Source of the DNA: an uncultured Candidatus Saccharibacteria bacterium
Lineage (GTDB): Bacteria > Patescibacteriota > Minisyncoccia > 2-02-FULL-40-12 > GWA2-44-9
Assembly: GCA_964479835.1 (NCBI GenBank)
Contig: CAYZRE010000001.1
Location: forward strand, 31,630-95,629
Direction of reading: 5' to 3'
DNA length: 64,000 bases
Part shown: positions 511 to 35,518 of the stretch, piece by piece
Position numbering within the stretch: the first letter of the stretch is position 1
Layout: every line of letters starts with the position of its first letter
Program-made: the position numbers and the translations under genes
The notes under the pieces: model-generated
What the model was told of the DNA's origin: nothing
Seen by the model: only the letters and a program-made list of their open reading frames with translations
Databases searched by the model: none

Positions 511-2037
511 TTATAACAGCTGTTTGACCTGCTCTTCGGTGATGAACTCCAGTGTATCACCTTCCTGAATATCGCCGCCGAAGCTTGATGTGTCAATGCG
601 CATCCCGCACTCCACGCCCTGGCCTACCTCTGTGGTGTCCACTTTTTCCTGCTGAAGACTGGAGATTTTCCCGACGCGCGTGACGGCCTCGCCGCGCACG
701 AGGTCCACGACGGCGCCCTTTCTGACAACGCCCGACACAACTCGGCCGCCTAGGATAATGGAGCGCGCATCTTTCTTGAACAAGGCCAGTACGCGCAGTT
801 TTCCGATGACCGAGCGCTGGGTCTGTGTCGGCAAAAGTGCAGCGAGATTATTGCGGATGGCTTCGATAAGTTCGTAGATGATATCGAATGATGTGACGAC
901 GATGCCGTCGCGTTCTGCGAGCTTTGCGGCGGCCGGGTCCGTTTGCACACGAAATCCTATAATGACGGCACCTTTTGCGGCGGCGGTCTTTACATCTGCT
1001 TCCGAGATATTTCCGATGCCGGAATCGAGGACGCGGATACCGACCTGCTCGTTCTTAATGGCGCCGATAGACAACTCGATGGCCTCCAGCGAGCTTGCGA
1101 CATCGGCCTTGAAGATAATATTTAGCGTGATGCGCTCGCTTCCGGATGGCTGTTCGCCGCGATAGGTGTCAAACGCCACCGGCGGGGGAGTGATGGAGTC
1201 GGCCGCCAATTCTTCTGCCGCCTTCTTTGCTTTCGCAGTGCGAAACTGTTCGCCGACGCGCGGCGACTCCTGCCATCCGGTCAGTAGTACCGGTTGTGAC
1301 GGGCGGGCCTCTTCGAGTGCGTGCCCGAGGAAATCTTCCATGCTCTTGACCTTGCCAACCACATGACCGACCACAATCCAGTCGCCGACATGCAGAATAC
1401 CAACTTGCACCAGGGCAGTCGCAACATAGCCGCGTTGCTTGTCGAGGTTTGATTCGATAATGATACCCGACGCCGGCCCGGCGGTTATTTCTTTCAGTTC
1501 CTGCAGTTCGGCGACCAGCAGTACCATCTCCAACAGCTCGGGGATACCGGCGCCGGTCTTTGCCGATATTTCCACGGCCGGAGTCTGTCCGCCCCATTCT
1601 TCCACTAATATATTCTCCTGGGCCAGGTCCTGCTTCACTTTCGCGGGACTTGATCCTTCCTTGTCGGTCTTGTTGATGGCAATAACGCAGGGCAGACCCG
1701 CTTCTTTGATGATACCGATTGCTTCTTTCGTTTGGGGCTTTACTGATTCATCGGCGGCCACGACCAGAATAGCGATGTCGGCAACTTTGGCGCCACGACT
1801 GCGGATAGCGGTGAAAGCTTCGTGCCCGGGGGTATCCAGAAAGGTGATGAGCTTGCCGTGAGCTTCTGCCTGGTATGCGCCGATGTGCTGGGTGATGCCG
1901 CCCGACTCACCCGCAACAATATTCGTCTTCCGAATAACATCCAAAAGCTTCGTTTTTCCGTGGTCGACATGCCCCAATACCACCACAACGGGCGGGCGTA
2001 CTGCAGAGGGCTTGTTGTCGGGGGCAATGGACGTCAT
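511..2037 (-). CDS. infB: translation initiation factor IF-2 (short form, 508 aa)
   Basis: GTPase G1 motif GHVDHGKT shortly after the start; the rest of the ORF is of IF-2 length and composition but was not read in detail. Lacks the long N-terminal region of classical IF-2. Confidence 0.9.
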   Translation of the reverse strand: MTSIAPDNKPSAVRPPVVVVLGHVDHGKTKLLDVIRKTNIVAGESGGITQHIGAYQAEAHGKLITFLDTPGHEAFTAIRSRGAKVADIAILVVAADESVKPQTKEAIGIIKEAGLPCVIAINKTDKEGSSPAKVKQDLAQENILVEEWGGQTPAVEISAKTGAGIPELLEMVLLVAELQELKEITAGPASGIIIESNLDKQRGYVATALVQVGILHVGDWIVVGHVVGKVKSMEDFLGHALEEARPSQPVLLTGWQESPRVGEQFRTAKAKKAAEELAADSITPPPVAFDTYRGEQPSGSERITLNIIFKADVASSLEAIELSIGAIKNEQVGIRVLDSGIGNISEADVKTAAAKGAVIIGFRVQTDPAAAKLAERDGIVVTSFDIIYELIEAIRNNLAALLPTQTQRSVIGKLRVLALFKKDARSIILGGRVVSGVVRKGAVVDLVRGEAVTRVGKISSLQQEKVDTTEVGQGVECGMRIDTSSFGGDIQEGDTLEFITEEQVKQLL

Positions 2038-3077: not shown

Positions 3078-3104
3078 ATAATAACATATCTACCTTCAAT
3101 ACGG

Positions 3105-3191
3105 CGGAGAGGGTGAGATTCGAACTCACGGGGCTCTTGCGAGCCCGGCGGTTTAGTAAACCGCTGCTTTAGACCGCTCAGCCACCTCTCC
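3105..3191 (-). tRNA. class II (long variable arm) Ser-type tRNA with apparent anticodon ACU (loop TTACTAA)
   Basis: Minus strand, 87 nt. Acceptor GGAGAGG/CCTCTCC, G73 discriminator, 3-bp D-stem with long D-loop. Anticodon stem GCGGT/ACCGC, loop TTACTAA. 18-nt variable arm hairpin GGGCTC-GCAA-GAGCCC. T-arm GTGAG-TTCGAAT-CTCAC. Confidence 0.6.
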
Positions 3192-3372: not shown

Positions 3373-3462
3373 GCGGAGACGGAAGGATTCGAACCTTCGG
3401 TTCGGTTTGACCCGAACACCTCTTTAGCAAAGAGGCTCATTAGACCACTCTGACACGTCTCC
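3373..3462 (-). tRNA. tRNA-Ser(GCT)
   Basis: Minus strand, 90 nt. Acceptor GGAGACG/CGTCTCC, G73. Anticodon arm CCTCT-TTGCTAA-AGAGG. 20-nt variable arm, T-arm GAAGG-TTCGAAT-CCTTC. Confidence 0.8.
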
Positions 3463-20334: not shown

Positions 20335-23300
20335 ATGTCCGATTTCAAGGAGCTTGAAGAGCGCATGCTCGCATTCTGGGAAGACAACGATGTCTTCCGA
20401 AAAAGCATGCATCAACACGAAGGACGGAAGCCATTCGTGTTCTTCGAGGGGCCGCCGACAGCCAACGGAAATCCCGGCATCCATCATGTCATCGCGCGCG
20501 TCTTCAAAGACCTCATCAGTCGCTACAAAACAATGCGCGGACACTTTGTATTGCGCAAAGGCGGATGGGATACCCATGGACTACCCGTTGAAATACAAGT
20601 CGAGAAAGAATTGGGATTCAAGAGCAAGAAAGATATCGAAGCGTACGGCATCGCCGCCTATAATGCCAAGTGTCGTCAGTCTGTATGGAAATTCAAGGAA
20701 GAGTGGGAGCGCTTCACGCGCCGCATTGGATACTGGGTAGACCTCCAGAATCCGTATGTGACCTATGAGAATCCGTACATCGAATCGCTCTGGAACATCA
20801 TCGGCCGCATCTGGGACAAGAAGCTACTCTATCAGGCGCACCGTGTCGTTCCATTCTGCACTCGCTGCGGTACGCCGTTGTCCAGTCATGAAGTCGCACA
20901 GGGCTATAAAACGGTCACGGACAATTCGGTGTATCTGAAGTTCAAAGTGAAGAGTTCCAAGCTCAAGCTTCCCAAGAATTCGTTCATTCTGGCATGGACC
21001 ACAACGCCGTGGACATTACCGGGCAACGTCGCACTCGCGGTTGGTCGCGACATCAACTATGTCCTCGCCACATCAAGCGGAGGAGACGAGCATTATATTA
21101 TTGCTGCTGACCTGGCCAATAAAGTACTGGGTGCGCCGCTTGCTATCGAACGCCAGTTCACGGGCCGTGAACTCATCGGCACTTCCTACCAGCCGTTATT
21201 TGCCGTCAAAGCTCTCAAAAAACCGAAGTCATACAAAGTGTATGAGGCCGATTTTGTTTCAACTACTGATGGCACGGGTGTCGTACACACAGCGGTTATG
21301 TACGGTGAGGACGATTATCAGCTGGGCACGAAGCTCGGACTAGTGAAACAGCACACCGTTGATGAACAGGGGAAATTCTTCGGTGTATCGAAAGAGTTGG
21401 ACGGAGCATATGTCAAAGCCGTGAGTACAGAAGCCATTATTCTGGATAAACTGAAAGCTGATAACGCATTACTCACGACTGCTCCCTTCGAGCATGAGTA
21501 TCCGTTTTGCTGGCGTTGTGATACTCCGCTGTTGTATTACGCGAAGGACAGCTGGTTCATCCGCATGAGCGCAATCAATGCTCAACTGCTTGCAAATAAC
21601 GATACGATTAACTGGGTTCCGGAACATCTCAAAGACGGGCGTTTCGGCCAGTGGCTTCGCGAAGGAAAGGATTGGGCGTTTTCTCGTGAGCGCTACTGGG
21701 GTACACCGCTTCCCATTTGGCAGGCCCGCGACAAGAAAGGCAAGGGGACCGGGCAGTGTCTGGTCGCTCACTCAATGGAAGACCTCGACACCTATCGCGG
21801 CGATAAGCCGGCTCACTTCTGGGTGATGCGCCACGGTGAAGCGCGCAAAAATGTGGACCATATCATCGACCAGGGCGAACTTGAGTCGCCGCTGACTGAT
21901 GTCGGCAGAGAGCAGGTAATCAGCGCGGCGCGGGCGCTCAAAAAACAATTATCTTCCGCGCGCACGAAATTGACCGCCGTCATCTCATCACCGATTCAGC
22001 GAACACTGGAGACGGCCGAGATTGCAGCGCAGGAGTTGGGCATAAAGACCATCGTTACCGATGAACGATTGCGCGAAATTAAACTCGGTCCGACACTGGC
22101 CGGATGTCATGACGGTAAGTACCACGAGCTCTACCCGACCTACGAGTCCAAGTTCACCCAGCAGCCGCCCGGGGGTGAGTCACTCGCCGATTTGAGGACC
22201 CGCATGTGGCAGATGCTTACGGAGCTGAACACGAAGTACTCCGGCAAAGATGTTTTGCTGGTCAGCCACGAATATCCCATCTGGATGATGACGGATGCAG
22301 CAAACGCGTGGAACAGGGAGCAGTCCATTACCGAGAAACAGAAACGCGGGAATGATTTTATCGGGTTTGCGTCCGTCGAGCAGCTGGTTGTGCGCAATCT
22401 ACCGCGCGACCCCGCAGGTATGCTGGACCTACACCGACCGTTCATCGACGATATTGTTCTGAAGTATCCCGATAGTTCTGCCAAGCTATATCGCGTGCCG
22501 GAAATTGCCGATGTGTGGTTCGATTCCGGTGCTATGCCCTATGCGCAGTGGCACTGGCCATTTGAGAATGAAAAAGTTTTCCAACAGCAGTTCCCGGCCG
22601 ATTTCATCTCCGAGGCCATCGATCAAACCCGCGGATGGTTCTACACGCTGTTGGCGGTCTCTACATTATTAGGTGACGGTGCACCGTACAAAAATGTACT
22701 GTCTCTGGGGCACATCTTAGATGAGAAGGGTCAGAAGATGTCAAAATCGAAAGGCAATATCGTCATGCCTGACGATGTATTCAGCGCGGTCGGCATTGAC
22801 GCAACGCGTTGGTATTTTTATACGGTAAATGCGCCGGGCGATACAAAGAATTTCTCCATGAAGGAGGTGCGCGAGCGTTTGACCGGTTTTATGATGACAC
22901 TCAACAACTGTCTGCGTTTCTATGAACTGTACCGAGCACAGCACGATACGATTCATCCGGAATTTTCCTCGGAGTCTTCTTCGAACTTGCTGGACAAGTG
23001 GATTGTGTCGCGACTGCGCGAGGTTACCGTGCTGGCGACTGCGCGACTGGACACCTACGATATTACCGTGGCTGCCCGCGAGCTGGAGCGATTCGTCGTA
23101 GACGATTTTAGTCAGTGGTGGCTTCGTCGCAGTCGCAAGCGCAGCGATGCTCTGCCGTTGCTGAGGCATATCCTGCGCTCGTTATCACTACTTCTCGCCC
23201 CGTTTATTCCGTACACAGCCGAGGAGCTGTGGCAGAAGCTCAAGTCGGAAGGGGACCCTCTCTCGGTACACCTTGCCGATTGGCCCGCCACCGGCGACAA

Positions 23301-23811
23301 GACGGCGATTGATGTGCAACTACACCAACAGATGATGCAGGTACGCGAGTACATCAGTGCCGGACTTGCGGCACGCAAAGAAAATCAGATTAAAGTCCGC
23401 CAACCTCTGCAATCAGTGACCGTCCCGGGCAAAAAATTGCACAATGACTTGGAAGATCTTATCCGTGATGAACTCAATGTGAAAGAAGTGAAATATGAAC
23501 CCGGTGCCGCAATTATGCTCGATGTGCACATTGGTACGCAATTGCGCGCGGAAGGATTCGCGCGTGAAGTGATGCGTACCGTGCAGGATATGCGCAAGGA
23601 ATTAGGCTGTCAGGTGACCGACCGCGTGTACTGCCAATGGTTTAGTGAGGATGCAGAAGTCAGCGCTGCGCTTCTTCAGCACGGCGACATGATTGCCCGC
23701 GAGACGGGCCTGTCGGCATTCGTGCATCAGGCCGACGATAAGACGCTTACCATTGAGAAAAACTTCGAGCTTGCTCTCGGTAAAGCTCTTTGGATTGGTA
23801 TCCGAAAATAA
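20335..23811 (+). CDS. ileS: isoleucyl-tRNA synthetase with embedded histidine-phosphatase (PGM-like) domain
   Basis: HIGH variant PPTANGNPGIHHV, KMSKS (KMSKSKGN), WCxRC, GTPLPIW, DVWFDSG. About 250-aa insert carrying RHGE...SPLT...VSHE histidine-phosphatase motifs between GTPLPIW and DVWFDSG. Confidence 0.9.
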   Translation: MSDFKELEERMLAFWEDNDVFRKSMHQHEGRKPFVFFEGPPTANGNPGIHHVIARVFKDLISRYKTMRGHFVLRKGGWDTHGLPVEIQVEKELGFKSKKDIEAYGIAAYNAKCRQSVWKFKEEWERFTRRIGYWVDLQNPYVTYENPYIESLWNIIGRIWDKKLLYQAHRVVPFCTRCGTPLSSHEVAQGYKTVTDNSVYLKFKVKSSKLKLPKNSFILAWTTTPWTLPGNVALAVGRDINYVLATSSGGDEHYIIAADLANKVLGAPLAIERQFTGRELIGTSYQPLFAVKALKKPKSYKVYEADFVSTTDGTGVVHTAVMYGEDDYQLGTKLGLVKQHTVDEQGKFFGVSKELDGAYVKAVSTEAIILDKLKADNALLTTAPFEHEYPFCWRCDTPLLYYAKDSWFIRMSAINAQLLANNDTINWVPEHLKDGRFGQWLREGKDWAFSRERYWGTPLPIWQARDKKGKGTGQCLVAHSMEDLDTYRGDKPAHFWVMRHGEARKNVDHIIDQGELESPLTDVGREQVISAARALKKQLSSARTKLTAVISSPIQRTLETAEIAAQELGIKTIVTDERLREIKLGPTLAGCHDGKYHELYPTYESKFTQQPPGGESLADLRTRMWQMLTELNTKYSGKDVLLVSHEYPIWMMTDAANAWNREQSITEKQKRGNDFIGFASVEQLVVRNLPRDPAGMLDLHRPFIDDIVLKYPDSSAKLYRVPEIADVWFDSGAMPYAQWHWPFENEKVFQQQFPADFISEAIDQTRGWFYTLLAVSTLLGDGAPYKNVLSLGHILDEKGQKMSKSKGNIVMPDDVFSAVGIDATRWYFYTVNAPGDTKNFSMKEVRERLTGFMMTLNNCLRFYELYRAQHDTIHPEFSSESSSNLLDKWIVSRLREVTVLATARLDTYDITVAARELERFVVDDFSQWWLRRSRKRSDALPLLRHILRSLSLLLAPFIPYTAEELWQKLKSEGDPLSVHLADWPATGDKTAIDVQLHQQMMQVREYISAGLAARKENQIKVRQPLQSVTVPGKKLHNDLEDLIRDELNVKEVKYEPGAAIMLDVHIGTQLRAEGFAREVMRTVQDMRKELGCQVTDRVYCQWFSEDAEVSAALLQHGDMIARETGLSAFVHQADDKTLTIEKNFELALGKALWIGIRK

Positions 23812-28674: not shown

Positions 28675-29964
28675 ATGCCGAAAGAACAGGATTTAATGGA
28701 TGCAGTCGTCTCGCTCTGCAAGCGGCGCGGGTTTGTGTACCCGGGCTCGGAGATTTACGGAGGGCTTGCCAATAGCTGGGACTACGGCCCGTTGGGCACG
28801 GAGCTGAAAAATAACATCAAGCAATTGTGGTGGAAGAAGTTCGTGCAGTCACGCGATGACATGGTGGGTATCGATGCTGCGCTCATTATGAATCCCAAAG
28901 TATGGGAAGCATCGGGGCATATCTCACACTTCAGCGACCCGCTCGTAGAATGCAAGAAATGCCATACGAGATTTCGCGCTGACCAGATTAAAGGGGAGTG
29001 CACGAATTGTGGCGCGAAAGAGTTCACGGAAGCAAAGCAGTTCAACATGATGCTCAAGACATTCCTTGGACCTGCCGAAGAAGAAGCAAATGTTGTCTAT
29101 TTCCGTCCTGAGACGGCGCAGGCGATGTTCGTAGATTTCAAGAATGTCCTCGATACATCCCGAAAAACATTGCCGTTTGGTATCGCTCAAATCGGAAAAG
29201 CATTCCGCAACGAAATAACCCCGGGCAACTTTATTTTCCGCACGCGCGAGTTCGAACAGATGGAAATTGAGTACTTCGTCCGCGAGAATGAATGGGAACA
29301 GCATTTTGAATACTGGCAGAAACAGATGCGCGAATGGGTCACAGAAATCGGCATCGATTCGTCACATATCCACGAAGTCGATATTCCCGACGGCGAGCGT
29401 GCCCACTACTCAAAGCGCACGATCGATTTTGAATATGACTACCCGTTCGGTCAGAAGGAGCTCTATGGTTTGGCGTATCGCACTGATTTTGATTTGAGGA
29501 ATCACTTCAAGGAACCGCCGTACAAAGACCCACAAACAAGCGAAGCATCATATCCGCATGTCGTTGAACCCACCTGGGGCGTCGATCGGTCAGTGTTGGT
29601 AGCGCTTCTGGAAGCATACAGAGAGGAAGAAGACCGGGTTGTCCTGAAATTGCCGCCCAAACTCGCACCGTTCAAGGCGGCAGTTTTTCCGTTGTTGAAA
29701 AATAAGCCGGAGTTGGTGGCGAAAGCGAAAGAAATCTACGCTGTGCTCCGCAAAGATTTTACTGTTGACTGGGATGACCGTGGTAACATCGGCAAACGCT
29801 ACTATGCGCAGGATGAAATCGGCACACCTGCCTGCATTACCATCGACTTCGACACACTTGAGAATGAAACGGTCACCGTGCGCGACCGTGACACGAAGGA
29901 ACAAAAACGAGTTGCCATCACCGAACTTTCTGCTCTCATCGACGCCTCTCTAGCGGCGCATTGA
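28675..29964 (+). CDS. glyQS: glycyl-tRNA synthetase (alpha2 dimeric type)
   Basis: Class II motifs. N-terminus RGFVYPGSEIYGGLANSWDYGPLG. Confidence 0.9.
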   Translation: MPKEQDLMDAVVSLCKRRGFVYPGSEIYGGLANSWDYGPLGTELKNNIKQLWWKKFVQSRDDMVGIDAALIMNPKVWEASGHISHFSDPLVECKKCHTRFRADQIKGECTNCGAKEFTEAKQFNMMLKTFLGPAEEEANVVYFRPETAQAMFVDFKNVLDTSRKTLPFGIAQIGKAFRNEITPGNFIFRTREFEQMEIEYFVRENEWEQHFEYWQKQMREWVTEIGIDSSHIHEVDIPDGERAHYSKRTIDFEYDYPFGQKELYGLAYRTDFDLRNHFKEPPYKDPQTSEASYPHVVEPTWGVDRSVLVALLEAYREEEDRVVLKLPPKLAPFKAAVFPLLKNKPELVAKAKEIYAVLRKDFTVDWDDRGNIGKRYYAQDEIGTPACITIDFDTLENETVTVRDRDTKEQKRVAITELSALIDASLAAH

Positions 29965-31699: not shown

Positions 31700-31732
31700 A
31701 CCAAAAGCGCTCACATAGGGGGCGCTTTTGGT
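31700..31732. terminator. hairpin after tRNA-Asp (possible terminator)
   Basis: ACCAAAAGCGC...GCGCTTTTGGT 11-bp stem with an 11-nt loop. The A/T tracts are part of the stem, so the orientation is ambiguous. Confidence 0.35.
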
Positions 31733-31745
31733 ATACTATAACCAT

Positions 31746-32126
31746 ATGCGCATCAAGCCTTCATTGGTAACAGGTGCAGCCACAATCGTGGCGCTCGCGG
31801 CCGTGGGCGTCGTGGTATTGGCGACCGAGCCGTCACAGGATCAGCAGGAACTGATAATGCTGTTGTGGGCCGCATTGTTTCTGACGATGTGGGGTTTTAT
31901 GTGCACACTCCTTTTATTGATGCGGCAAACGATTGCACAGGCTCTGTGGACTGCGCTACCACCGGCGGTAGCGGCCGTTGGCCTGCTGGCAGCACTCCAT
32001 CGCGGAGTGCTGGGACAACGATTGCTTGAGGGTATTATTTTGACTACAGTGGTGCTATCCTCCGTTATCCGGTGGAAGCTTCGCCGGGAAAAAGCGCATA
32101 CAGGGCACACTTCAGAAAATCAATGA
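31746..32126 (+). CDS. hypothetical membrane protein
   Basis: Three to four TM helices. Start chosen at the second Met of ORF 31728..32126. Confidence 0.4.
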   Translation: MRIKPSLVTGAATIVALAAVGVVVLATEPSQDQQELIMLLWAALFLTMWGFMCTLLLLMRQTIAQALWTALPPAVAAVGLLAALHRGVLGQRLLEGIILTTVVLSSVIRWKLRREKAHTGHTSENQ

Positions 32127-33259
32127 ACATCACCATAGAGACGCCGGAAGCATTAGCGATTCGCAAACATCTGGAAGCGAGACACGACGCAGTCAGCGAG
32201 CGGCTGAAGCGCTTTTTAGCACTGCCAGACCTGTCACGCACCCCGGGAAGCCCCATCAATGAGCTAGCCGAACGGATTACTTCTATCCCGGACTTTAAAG
32301 ACTTTGATATCGTTGATGTCCCGGAAATCGTGCCTGCGGACAAAAGCTTCGACCTCTTTGATTTTGCTGCCGACCATCCGGCCCGCAGTCCGTCTGATAC
32401 CTATTATGTCGACGGCAATACTATCCTGCGTACGCACACGACGATCTCGTGGTATTACTACCTGACATCGGACCGGGCAAAAGAAAAGATTAAGAATCAT
32501 GAGCCGCTCGGCGTCTTCACCTACGGAAAGGTATACCGCAAAGACGAGATCGATCGGAATCACATGAATATCTTCCATCAGATGGACGGCTATTACCTGA
32601 TGCCGAAAGACAAAGGCATCGTGAGCGTTGATGACCTGAAGGATGTCCTCACAAAAATAGCGCAGGCGGTATTCGGACCGGATGTGAAGTATCGCTTCAA
32701 TGCGGATAATTTTCCGTATACTGATCCGAGTTTAGAGATGGAGATCGATAAAGGCGGAAAGTGGGTTGAAGTGCTGGGAAGCGGCATGGTGAAGGGGAGT
32801 GTACTGGAAAAACTGGGCATTGATTCGTCTCGCTACACAGGTTGGGCGTTCGGATTCGGCCTTGAGCGTTTGGCAATTATCAGCATGGAGCTACCTGATA
32901 TCCGGTTGCTGTGGTCCCATGACCCGCGCGTGTTGAAGCAGTTGAAGCTCGGAAGCAAATTCAAAGAAGTGAGTAAATTCCCGCCGATTACACGAGATAT
33001 TTCTTTTATCGTGCCGAAAGATTTTACGCCGAATAATTACTTTGACCTCATCCGTGATCTTGGCGGCCAGCTGGTCGAGGAAGTCACTCTCTTAGATCAT
33101 TACGACAATGACGATAAGTTCGGGTCGGACAATACCAGCTATACCTACCGCATCGTCTACCGCTCCAACGAGCGCACGCTTGCCACGGCTGAAATCGATC
33201 CGATTCAGGCGAAAATCACCCAAGAGACTATCTCCCAGTTTGGCGCGCAGGTCCGATAG
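32123..33259 (+). CDS. pheS: phenylalanyl-tRNA synthetase alpha-type catalytic subunit fused to a C-terminal FDX-ACB anticodon-binding domain
   Basis: Class II motifs (DHPARSPSDTYY..LRTHTT, FHQMDG, GWAFGFGLERLAI) plus a C-terminal FPPITRDISFIVPKD...YRSNERTLATAE FDX-ACB signature. No pheT downstream. Confidence 0.8.
   Translation: MNITIETPEALAIRKHLEARHDAVSERLKRFLALPDLSRTPGSPINELAERITSIPDFKDFDIVDVPEIVPADKSFDLFDFAADHPARSPSDTYYVDGNTILRTHTTISWYYYLTSDRAKEKIKNHEPLGVFTYGKVYRKDEIDRNHMNIFHQMDGYYLMPKDKGIVSVDDLKDVLTKIAQAVFGPDVKYRFNADNFPYTDPSLEMEIDKGGKWVEVLGSGMVKGSVLEKLGIDSSRYTGWAFGFGLERLAIISMELPDIRLLWSHDPRVLKQLKLGSKFKEVSKFPPITRDISFIVPKDFTPNNYFDLIRDLGGQLVEEVTLLDHYDNDDKFGSDNTSYTYRIVYRSNERTLATAEIDPIQAKITQETISQFGAQVR

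Positions 33260-33359: not shown

Positions 33360-35518
<2,159 letters not shown>

Follow-up and report, generated by a model that had tools for sequence, protein, structure and literature searches.

A probable single-chain phenylalanyl-tRNA synthetase of a large Parcubacteria family, encoded next to gyrB

The stretch of DNA analysed here (64 kb, called the window) carries a gene whose 378-aa product joins a catalytic core of the type found in PheS, the alpha subunit of phenylalanyl-tRNA synthetase (PheRS), to an FDX-ACB anticodon-binding domain of the type that forms domain B8 of the beta subunit, PheT (Table 1). The fusion had been proposed in an initial annotation, made from the letters alone, and is borne out by a Pfam search; likewise, every string quoted there (FHQMDG, GWAFGFGLERLAI, KFPPITRDISFIVPKD and YRIVYRSNERTLATAEID) occurs in the translation. 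The N-terminal coiled coil of canonical PheS was said to be missing, and PF02912 indeed has no match anywhere in the protein: a short helical region stands in for the canonical coiled coil of about 85-100 aa. The sequence beyond motif 3 had been put at about 130 aa and is in fact shorter, with about 105 aa to the C-terminus, 95 of them FDX-ACB. Judged by alignment, the linker between the domains would be the former C-terminal tail of PheS, passing directly into the anticodon-binding (ACB) domain. The ATG start agrees with the N-termini of homologues; an alternative GTG at 32072 was rejected, as it would add 17 aa that are absent from every homologue. An identical protein (P0001) is present in public data.

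Table 1. Position of the single-chain PheRS gene, its parts and its neighbours in the window.
Feature	Coordinates	Strand	Basis or remark
Small membrane-protein ORF, upstream	31728..32126	+	TGA stop overlaps PheRS ATG (ATGA)
Single-chain PheRS gene, 378 aa	32123..33259	+	ORF list; PF01409 + PF03147; stop codon 33257-33259
N-terminal short helical region, aa 1-42	32123..32248	+	No PF02912; predicted helices aa 8-19, 23-33
PheS-type class II catalytic core, aa 43-273	32249..32941	+	PF01409, E=4e-57
Motif 2 region GKVYRKDEIDRNHMNIFHQMDG (R139, H147, Q153, D155)	32525..32590	+	Alignment to E. coli PheS
Phe-pocket strand FPYTDPSLE (F197, Y199, T200, S203, E205)	32711..32737	+	Alignment to E. coli PheS
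Motif 3 GWAFGFGLERLA (A242 = E. coli A294; R249 = motif 3 Arg)	32840..32875	+	Residue mapping
Linker LPDIRLLWSHDPRVLKQL..., aa 257-283	32891..32971	+	Aligns to E. coli PheS C-terminus ...DLRSFFENDLRFLKQF and FARS2 linker
FDX-ACB (PheT-B8-type) anticodon-binding domain, aa 284-378	32972..33256	+	PF03147, E=2.5e-22
G34-contact residues D325, Y327, S339, R378	33095-33097, 33101-33103, 33137-33139, 33254-33256	+	Alignment to human mtPheRS
gyrB, conserved downstream neighbour	33398..35518	+	Pfam: DNA_gyraseB, Toprim, HATPase_c, GyrB_C

The overlap with the stop codon of the preceding small ORF makes it likely that the two genes are co-transcribed and translationally coupled, and relatives carry a small ORF at the equivalent position, with low sequence identity. 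A scan around the PheRS gene found no promoter or terminator exceeding shuffled background, and no break in composition was seen there. The downstream gene is gyrB, as the initial annotation had stated, and the same order recurs in L002, L003, L091 and approximately 40 of some 60 metagenome loci, the locus being conserved beside gyrB-(secE)-nusG-rplK. In relatives' loci, covered for 10 kb either side of the fused gene, some neighbours are tRNA-related: six have a gene for a stand-alone PheT-B2-like tRNA_bind protein immediately upstream, and six have one for a CCA-adding enzyme downstream. Compared with its counterpart on the 733-kb scaffold L002, the window's single-chain PheRS is 70% identical, against 65% for GyrB and 57% for GatB: the gene is under strong purifying selection within a conserved housekeeping locus.

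The window gene is a member of a large and scarcely described family of single-chain PheRS in Parcubacteria (CPR), with representatives in Yanofsky-, Lipton-, Harrison-, Wolfe-, Staskawicz- and Nealsonbacteria, usually before gyrB. Homologues number in the thousands across Parcubacteria, so that the gene is not rare, and they lie on numerous independent contigs, the longest about 785 kb. Near-complete single contigs with family members are a Staskawiczbacteria contig of 785,252 bp (MFA5878154.1, locus tag WC845_02185) and ERZ23486227 scaffold_1 of 732,986 bp. One family member lies in a metagenome-assembled genome (MAG) labelled Oligoflexia, among metabolic genes untypical of CPR. Against TIGR00469 (pheS_mito), the window protein scores 232.9 bits, below the curated cut-off of 258.35, and assignment to that family was rejected; five other members of the single-chain family score 229-251 bits, and P0121, the representative of a 50%-identity cluster, passes with 264.3 bits. 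The window protein is also below the cut-offs of TIGR00468 (pheS; 166.6 bits against 237.45) and of its top NCBIfam match, SrmL (NF051887; 241.2 bits against 300). Because its scores are just under these three cut-offs, the protein is labelled "hypothetical" by NCBI, and UniProt automatically names family members phenylalanine--tRNA ligase. A literature search found no paper describing a single-chain PheRS from bacteria or CPR, and none on SrmL as a protein.

Residue conservation was assessed across 140 members of the family, with E. coli PheS numbering verified on T251 and A294. The mapping covered 26 catalytic, ATP and Phe-pocket positions; every one is conserved, and most hold the PheRS residue, including T200 (E. 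coli T251) and A242 (E. coli A294); at the second pocket Phe position, the subgroup to which the window protein belongs has Y199 in place of Phe. The class II signature is present and invariant, with R139 of motif 2 and R249 of motif 3 in FHQMDG and GWAFGFGLER. R139, H147, Q153 and D155 are 100% conserved (E. coli R195, H202, Q208 and E210), and F197, Y199, T200, S203 and E205 of the pocket strand align to E. coli F248, F250, T251, S254 and E256. In human mitochondrial PheRS (mtPheRS), the anticodon base G34 is contacted by D364, F366, S375 and R414 (PMC7540514; PMC8136816), and these correspond to D325, Y327, S339 and R378 here, which are 96-100% conserved in the 140 members; D292 corresponds to T. 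thermophilus beta-D696. Conversely, about 12 non-catalytic residues that are invariant in canonical PheS are not kept in the single-chain proteins, nor in FARS2, which fits the loss of an alpha/beta interface, assuming that these residues serve that interface in the canonical enzyme.

The AlphaFold (AF2) model of the protein is confident (pLDDT 92.4, pTM 0.87), and in Foldseek comparisons it superposes on closed human mtPheRS (3cmq/5mgh) with TM 0.79-0.80 and rmsd 2.4-3.1 A over about 390 columns (E ~1e-34), compared with a TM of only about 0.55 for PheS chains alone. The ACB domain is docked on the core in the model, as in closed mtPheRS, and the predicted overall fold and domain arrangement thus match those of the mitochondrial enzyme. 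Human mtPheRS is also the best solved relative across both domains (E ~1e-55).

By the standard account, bacteria have a heterotetrameric PheRS, (alpha-beta)2, that possesses an editing site, and single-chain enzymes are organellar. With the canonical enzyme (TIGR00468/TIGR00472), the window protein shares a core and active-site residues homologous to PheS and a C-terminal domain homologous to PheT domain B8, but it is one chain instead of two, with neither the coiled coil nor an adjacent pheT, and it lacks domains B1 to B7 and hence an editing site. With FARS2 and yeast MSF1 (TIGR00469; PDB 3CMQ, 3TUP), it shares the short N-terminus, the PheS-type core and the tail leading into a B8-type FDX-ACB domain, and with FARS2 also the G34-reading set (D, an aromatic residue, S and the C-terminal R) and the absence of an editing domain from the chain. 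It differs from FARS2 in being bacterial and encoded in a housekeeping locus before gyrB, in having no presequence, and in lacking an insertion by which the FARS2 alignment is split in two. Taken alone, the ACB domain has its highest score with the pheT_bact profile (82 bits), and the catalytic core is approximately equidistant from FARS2 and bacterial PheS. The initial annotation had suggested an alpha-only enzyme like the organellar one, and residue conservation and predicted fold give good support to this part of its proposal; a mitochondrial affinity of the sequence itself does not follow, as "mitochondrial-type" is true, at sequence level, of the architecture only.

Phylogenies of the kind it had suggested were built by neighbour-joining on Kimura distances from the single-chain family, FARS2, SrmL and canonical PheS. 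The single-chain family forms its own clade (91% and 100% bootstrap), as do the other three groups, and the trees give no order among the four clades, including any sister relation to FARS2. Signature columns favour a grouping of the single-chain family with FARS2 in both the core (5:1:0) and the ACB domain (4:2:0).

The absence of pheT from the window, also claimed at the outset, is confirmed: no ORF of at least 500 aa is PheT, and a full-length profile built from 68 canonical PheT proteins and run on the six-frame translation of all 64 kb matches only the single-chain PheRS ORF, at the B6/7 and B8 positions. The window holds no second PheS-like or FDX-ACB segment, and neither a PheT B1-B5 piece nor a second PheS was found there or in relatives' flanking sequence totalling about 1.0 Mb, an absence that says little, since only about 1.3 occurrences of canonical pheS/pheT would be expected by chance in flanks of about 1 Mb. 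Elsewhere, published supplementary tables show that the closed Paceibacteria genome PMX_810_sub has canonical pheT and pheS side by side and lacks a fused gene, and that pheT is present in some Gracilibacteria; canonical pheST occurs also in a Nealsonbacteria record, a label likewise borne by members of the single-chain family. In the canonical loci sampled, which come from Firmicutes and Gammaproteobacteria only and served as outgroups and as the source of the PheT profile, pheT directly follows pheS in at least 68 of 80.

SrmL ("PheS-related mystery ligase") is a further Parcubacteria family with the same two-domain layout and a similar length (397-415 aa), and in two Nomurabacteria MAGs it is encoded directly before gyrB. 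GCA_026395995.1 and GCA_026395955.1 are MAGs that bear SrmL. Two proteins that truly belong to the family, P0216 and P0230, reach 376 and 412 with NF051887. SrmL has the invariant changes H85N, D92Y, Y94R, F197H, S203G and G219E, whereas the window protein keeps H, D, Y, F, S and G at these six positions, the PheRS state; at the G34 site, SrmL has E, T and N and no C-terminal R, compared with D, Y, S and R in the window protein. On these diagnostic residues and on its score, membership of the window protein in SrmL was rejected. The two families form separate clades with full bootstrap for each, and their proteins are 33% identical, as against 58% for GyrB from the same genomes. The lists of contigs carrying single-chain PheRS and SrmL do not overlap, a comparison with almost no power to detect co-occurrence.

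Our preferred reading, to which we assign a probability of roughly 0.62, is that the gene encodes a self-sufficient, editing-free single-chain PheRS, most likely a housekeeping enzyme, that replaces PheS/PheT in this Parcubacteria lineage. Its parts differ in strength: conserved residues and predicted fold make it highly probable that the protein is a working tRNA-Phe ligase independent of PheT, and we consider it probable, with rather less assurance, that it is the only PheRS in its genome. Such an enzyme would be monomeric and would not edit. The PheS-type class II core would activate phenylalanine, the fused B8-type FDX-ACB domain would read G34 of the tRNA-Phe GAA anticodon, and a hinge movement of the two domains between closed and open states, as in mitochondrial PheRS, would deliver the acceptor end to the active site. 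No PheT would be needed and the B3/4 editing site would be absent, so that the synthetic site alone would have to discriminate against tyrosine, and the enzyme would have displaced the canonical heterotetrameric PheS/PheT in this lineage.

The protein might instead be an auxiliary second PheRS, a real tRNA-Phe ligase that serves a special purpose (such as another regulatory state, inhibitor resistance or the supply of Phe-tRNA for a non-ribosomal process) beside canonical PheS/PheT encoded elsewhere. We regard this as rather unlikely. SrmL, standing before gyrB in Nomurabacteria, no longer has the Phe and G34 residues, and in that lineage at least, a fused gene must therefore have been present together with another PheRS; in addition, canonical pheST is present in the Nealsonbacteria record and in at least one closed genome from Paceibacteria, and the family member from the Oligoflexia-labelled MAG has a gene context unlike that of CPR. 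However, duplicate aminoacyl-tRNA synthetase (aaRS) genes are unexpected in genomes of less than 1 Mb, the single-chain PheRS is conserved like core housekeeping proteins, and its PheRS-specific residues are kept in 140 members, in contrast to the clearly non-essential SrmL, which has drifted to a new invariant set. The pheST-bearing PMX_810_sub lacks the fusion, which, for this single genome, suggests complementary rather than joint occurrence.

Two further alternatives lead away from a self-sufficient PheRS altogether. That the protein is an aaRS-like ligase of another specificity, as is supposed for SrmL, is suggested by the rank of SrmL as its top NCBIfam match and by the Tyr at the second pocket Phe position in its subgroup; we consider it very improbable given a score well under the SrmL cut-off, the PheRS state of all six positions changed in SrmL, an intact G34 set, and the separation of the two families in the trees. 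It is slightly less probable still that we are dealing with an ordinary alpha subunit which bears an extra domain and forms a heterotetramer with PheT from another locus: the core is genuinely homologous to PheS (167 bits with TIGR00468), but the coiled coil is absent, many non-catalytic invariants of canonical PheS are lost as in monomeric FARS2, the protein has an anticodon-binding domain of its own that is docked on the core in the model as in closed mtPheRS, and pheT is not adjacent, contrary to the large majority of canonical loci. Eukaryotic or organellar contamination, or an assembly chimera, could be suspected from human FARS2 being the nearest solved structure, but we regard it as excluded by a bacterial CPR setting whose synteny is conserved across numerous independent contigs, the lack of a composition break and the overlap of the ATG with the stop of the upstream bacterial ORF.

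Beyond the preferred reading of a housekeeping single-chain PheRS, a wider one may be put forward tentatively, although as a joint claim it strikes us as doubtful: such an enzyme might be the sole, editing-free PheRS in much of Parcubacteria and represent an old bacterial lineage ancestral to FARS2 and to the copies in huge phages, in which case FARS2 would not have arisen independently by the joining of alphaproteobacterial pheS to pheT, and SrmL at the Nomurabacteria locus would have been re-tooled as a ligase specific for a new amino acid and a new RNA. Since SrmL occupies the same locus, its comparison with the single-chain PheRS amounts to a natural experiment on how the specificity of an aaRS shifts. 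Should many CPR bacteria have no PheRS other than the single-chain enzyme, annotation and marker-gene schemes built on the presence of both pheS and pheT would assess these genomes wrongly, the minimal PheRS design would not be confined to organelles, the question of the origin of FARS2 would be re-opened, and a major bacterial radiation would translate its Phe codons without PheRS editing.

The open reading frame that the initial annotation had read as a monomeric, mitochondrial-type PheRS was recovered on the forward strand as described, and every motif string quoted for it is present in the translation. Its longest frame opens at GTG 32072; we took ATG 32123 (MNITIETPEAL...) as the start, which matches the N-termini of all homologues and yields 378 aa. 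Pfam places PF01409, the PheS-type catalytic core, at aa 43-273 (E=4e-57) and PF03147, FDX-ACB, at aa 284-378 (E=2.5e-22). It returned no match to PF02912, the N-terminal coiled-coil family of PheS, bearing out the missing coiled coil. As in FARS2, the human mitochondrial PheRS (mtPheRS), the PheS C-terminal tail (...DIRLLWSHDPRVLKQL) leads through a short linker into a B8-type domain (beginning SKFPPITRDISF). In the window protein about 105 residues follow motif 3, rather than the roughly 130 first counted. The protein has no B3/4 editing domain. Among window ORFs of at least 500 aa none is PheT, and a six-frame search of the window with a PheT profile built from 68 full-length canonical proteins matched the fused ORF only, at the B6/7 and B8 positions, in keeping with the claim that the window lacks pheT; nor does the 64-kb window hold a second PheS-like or FDX-ACB segment.

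The core was compared in an alignment with SrmL ("PheS-related mystery ligase", NF051887), canonical PheS and FARS2-type proteins, and the E. coli numbering was checked against two well-known residues of PheS, T251 and A294. The 140 family members conserve every one of the 26 catalytic, ATP and Phe-pocket positions that were mapped (including H85, R103, T107, R139, H147, Q153, D155, F197, T200, S203, E205, E216, G219, G221, A242, G244, G246 and R249); as second pocket aromatic, the window protein's subgroup has Tyr (Y199) and the other subgroup Phe. In human mtPheRS, F366 (T. thermophilus beta-Y731) provides the stacking surface for anticodon base G34, to which D364, S375 and R414 form hydrogen bonds, and the D364G substitution abolishes activity (PMC7540514; PMC8136816). 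By alignment, the equivalents of these G34 contacts are D325, Y327, S339 and, at the C-terminus, R378; each of them is 96-100% conserved, and so is D292 (T. thermophilus beta-D696). An AlphaFold model of the window protein (pLDDT 92.4, pTM 0.87) superposes over its whole length on closed human mtPheRS (TM 0.79-0.80, rmsd 2.4-3.1 A) and more poorly on the open tRNA-bound form 3TUP (TM 0.60), and PheS chains overlay only its core. Taken together, the conserved residues and the modelled fold support the prediction of a functional ligase for tRNA-Phe that works by the mtPheRS mechanism. About 12 noncatalytic positions at which 22 canonical PheS sequences never vary (e.g., E134, D136, Y137, N144, R176, P190, D215, R244 and P245 in E. 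coli numbering) are not conserved in the fused family, and likewise in FARS2, a loss that may reflect relaxed constraint at the subunit interface.

Against NCBIfam, the whole protein scored highest with SrmL (241 bits, cut-off 300), then with pheS_mito (TIGR00469; 233, cut-off 258) and pheS (167, cut-off 237), reaching none of these cut-offs. The core by itself scored 187 with SrmL, 167 with pheS and 155 with pheS_mito, and the ACB domain 82 with pheT_bact, 68 with pheS_mito and 41 with SrmL. Pairwise phmmer scores put the core at equal distance from the FARS2-type and canonical PheS (median 133.5 vs. 131.6 bits), and the ACB domain is slightly nearer the FARS2-type (46.8 vs. 36.1). Neighbour-joining, with canonical sequences sampled from Firmicutes, Gammaproteobacteria and one plastid-like sequence, gave four clean clades, namely the fused family (bootstrap 91% and 100% in two analyses), SrmL, canonical PheS (100%) and FARS2-type (weaker), with the branching order among them not settled; signature columns lean toward grouping the fused family with FARS2 (5:1:0 in the core, 4:2:0 in the ACB domain). 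The term "mitochondrial-type" is thus justified for architecture and mechanism, FARS2-type enzymes likewise joining a PheS core and a B8-type domain in a single chain, but is not demonstrated as a statement of phylogeny.

The window looks like part of a CPR/Patescibacteria genome: its IF-2 is short, and it encodes type IV pili and numerous aaRSs. Its GC content (52-55%) shows no compositional break at the fused gene. Public data contain an identical protein and very many homologues of equal length with both Pfam domains, from Yanofsky-, Lipton-, Harrison-, Colwell-, Wolfe-, Staskawicz-, Nealson- and Portnoybacteria and "Paceibacterota" (67-93% identity to the window protein in the first homologue list), which NCBI names "hypothetical protein", JGI "phenylalanyl-tRNA synthetase alpha chain" and UniProt/UniRef "phenylalanine--tRNA ligase". 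Distant members (P0124, P0128) have Trp at positions where Gly is otherwise invariant (e.g., FGIWVER vs. FGFGLER), and at loci such as L086 the table 11 translation differs from the listed protein, consistent with CPR genomes that read UGA as Gly (code 25) having been translated under a different table. A further member, with 43% identity to the window protein, comes from a MAG labelled Oligoflexia, among metabolic genes atypical of CPR (peptidase M20, GCS2, MR_MLE, FrhB); either the family is not confined to CPR or this contig was binned wrongly. A search of 1.84 billion cluster representatives returned 289 matches at E<=1e-30: a handful of bacterial clusters, then about 130 FARS2-type proteins (six of six tested exceed the TIGR00469 cut-off), with canonical PheS from about rank 140. 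Separately, a FARS2-type gene lies on a phage-like contig (L084) that is densely packed with genes on one strand and encodes a dNMP kinase, dCMP deaminase and an eIF-1a-family (PF01176) protein. An "uncultured phage" record also contains a match, which spans the core and extends into the beginning of the ACB domain.

The 3' neighbour is gyrB, as first noted, followed by nusG, rplK, tmk and gatB; upstream, the stop of a small membrane-protein ORF overlaps the start codon of the fused gene (ATGA), and relatives have a poorly conserved small ORF at the equivalent position. The order fused gene then gyrB recurs on the 733-kb scaffold L002, in L003 and L091 (Staskawiczbacteria), and in about 40 of the roughly 60 metagenome loci that extend far enough downstream; in six loci a CCA-adding enzyme takes the place of gyrB. 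At L097, this gyrB is a 1291-aa open frame with a large insertion, which looks like an intein, soon after the N-terminal ATPase motifs. Directly upstream of the fused gene, on the same strand, six other loci among the 80 from metagenomes encode a stand-alone tRNA_bind protein (120-145 aa); the window has no such gene. These proteins resemble PheT domain B2 (77-99 bits against the PheT profile; PF01588 E ~1e-18) and could be pheT remnants or tRNA-binding helpers acting in trans. Elsewhere in the window, a tRNA-Ser with anticodon ACT lies near tRNA-Ser(GCT); serine tRNAs with A34 are unusual. GlyRS is of the single-chain dimeric type, not the bacterial alpha2-beta2 type, and residues 496-661 of IleRS form a histidine-phosphatase/phosphoglycerate-mutase-family domain (PF00300, E=7e-33) that interrupts the synthetase, similar to the interrupted IleRS reported for SR1 (Kantor et al., 2013; PMC3812714).

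Coordinates of the genes discussed, in the window and in public contigs
Feature	Sequence	Coordinates	Strand	Details
Fused PheRS gene	window	32123-33259	+	378 aa
gyrB	window	33398-35518		
IF-2 gene	window	511-2037	-	508 aa only
GlyRS gene	window	28675-29964	+	NF003211, TIGR00389
IleRS gene	window	20335-23811	+	1158 aa; TIGR00392, 842 bits
tRNA-Ser(ACT)	window	3103-3191	-	ARAGORN
tRNA-Ser(GCT)	window	3373-3462		ARAGORN
Stand-alone tRNA_bind	L118	348-881		PF01588
Stand-alone tRNA_bind	L138	3503-3862		PF01588
Stand-alone tRNA_bind	L139	539-982		PF01588
Stand-alone tRNA_bind	L145	2856-3263		PF01588
Stand-alone tRNA_bind	L154	9233-9679		PF01588
Stand-alone tRNA_bind	L156	3010-3450		PF01588
SrmL gene	L089	10001-11194		GCA_026395995.1
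SrmL gene	L090	1705-2898		GCA_026395955.1
Family member	L085	10001-11245		GCA_019694465.1
Distant family member	L086	9463-10833		
FARS2-type single-chain PheRS gene	L084	8001-9065		P0151; 160-kb Logan contig
Core and ACB-start match	LR745206.1	614016-614888		635-kb record
gyrB with insertion	L097	1878-5750		

True SrmL proteins (376 and 412 bits) constitute another Parcubacteria family, from Nomurabacteria and "Minisyncoccia", to which the window protein clearly does not belong. In two Nomurabacteria MAGs the SrmL gene sits directly before gyrB, the position of the fused gene in the window; sequence identity between SrmL and the window protein is 33%, against 58% for GyrB from the same genomes. 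The SrmL pocket carries H85N, D92Y, Y94R, F197H, S203G and G219E, invariant in 100 sequences, and its G34-contact set reads E, T, N with no C-terminal Arg. Because of these replacements, SrmL is unlikely to be a PheRS and looks like a re-tooled, aaRS-like ligase with a new specificity, whose hosts must have another PheRS. This shows that, at least in the SrmL lineage, a fused gene at the gyrB locus and another PheRS have coexisted.

We put the probability that the fused enzyme is the sole PheRS of the window genome at about 0.6-0.65. The family's invariant PheRS residues count toward this status, and the fused proteins of the window and L002 share 70% identity, a higher figure than for GyrB (65%) or GatB (57%). 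Redundant aaRS genes are seldom kept in genomes of this size, and in six relatives only the stand-alone B2-like piece adjoins the fused gene. Neither the window nor about 1.0 Mb of flanking DNA from relatives contained a PheT B1-B5 piece or a second PheS, an absence that weighs little because only about 1.3 chance inclusions were expected. That the protein is instead an auxiliary second PheRS beside the canonical heterotetramer of PheS and PheT seems less likely. Counting against sole status, pheT is recorded in some Gracilibacteria, and PMX_810_sub, a closed Paceibacteria genome (Ca. Minisyncoccus archaeiphilus), has adjacent canonical pheT (B3_4, B5, FDX-ACB) and pheS (with its N-terminal domain) in its annotation table; this table lists PF03147 just once, so that the genome is without the fusion. 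In the simplest scheme, a past period of redundancy between fusion and canonical enzyme would have had three outcomes: loss of the fusion (Minisyncoccus), loss of the canonical enzyme (the window protein's family) or re-tooling of the fusion (SrmL).

Databases hold thousands of these bacterial single-chain proteins, under the name PheRS in UniProt, and the literature searched yielded no paper describing either a bacterial single-chain PheRS or SrmL. The window protein is a bacterial, CPR instance of the kind of single-chain PheRS known from organelles, and its significance would be greater if whole genomes lack the canonical enzyme, or if better trees tie FARS2 to its lineage.
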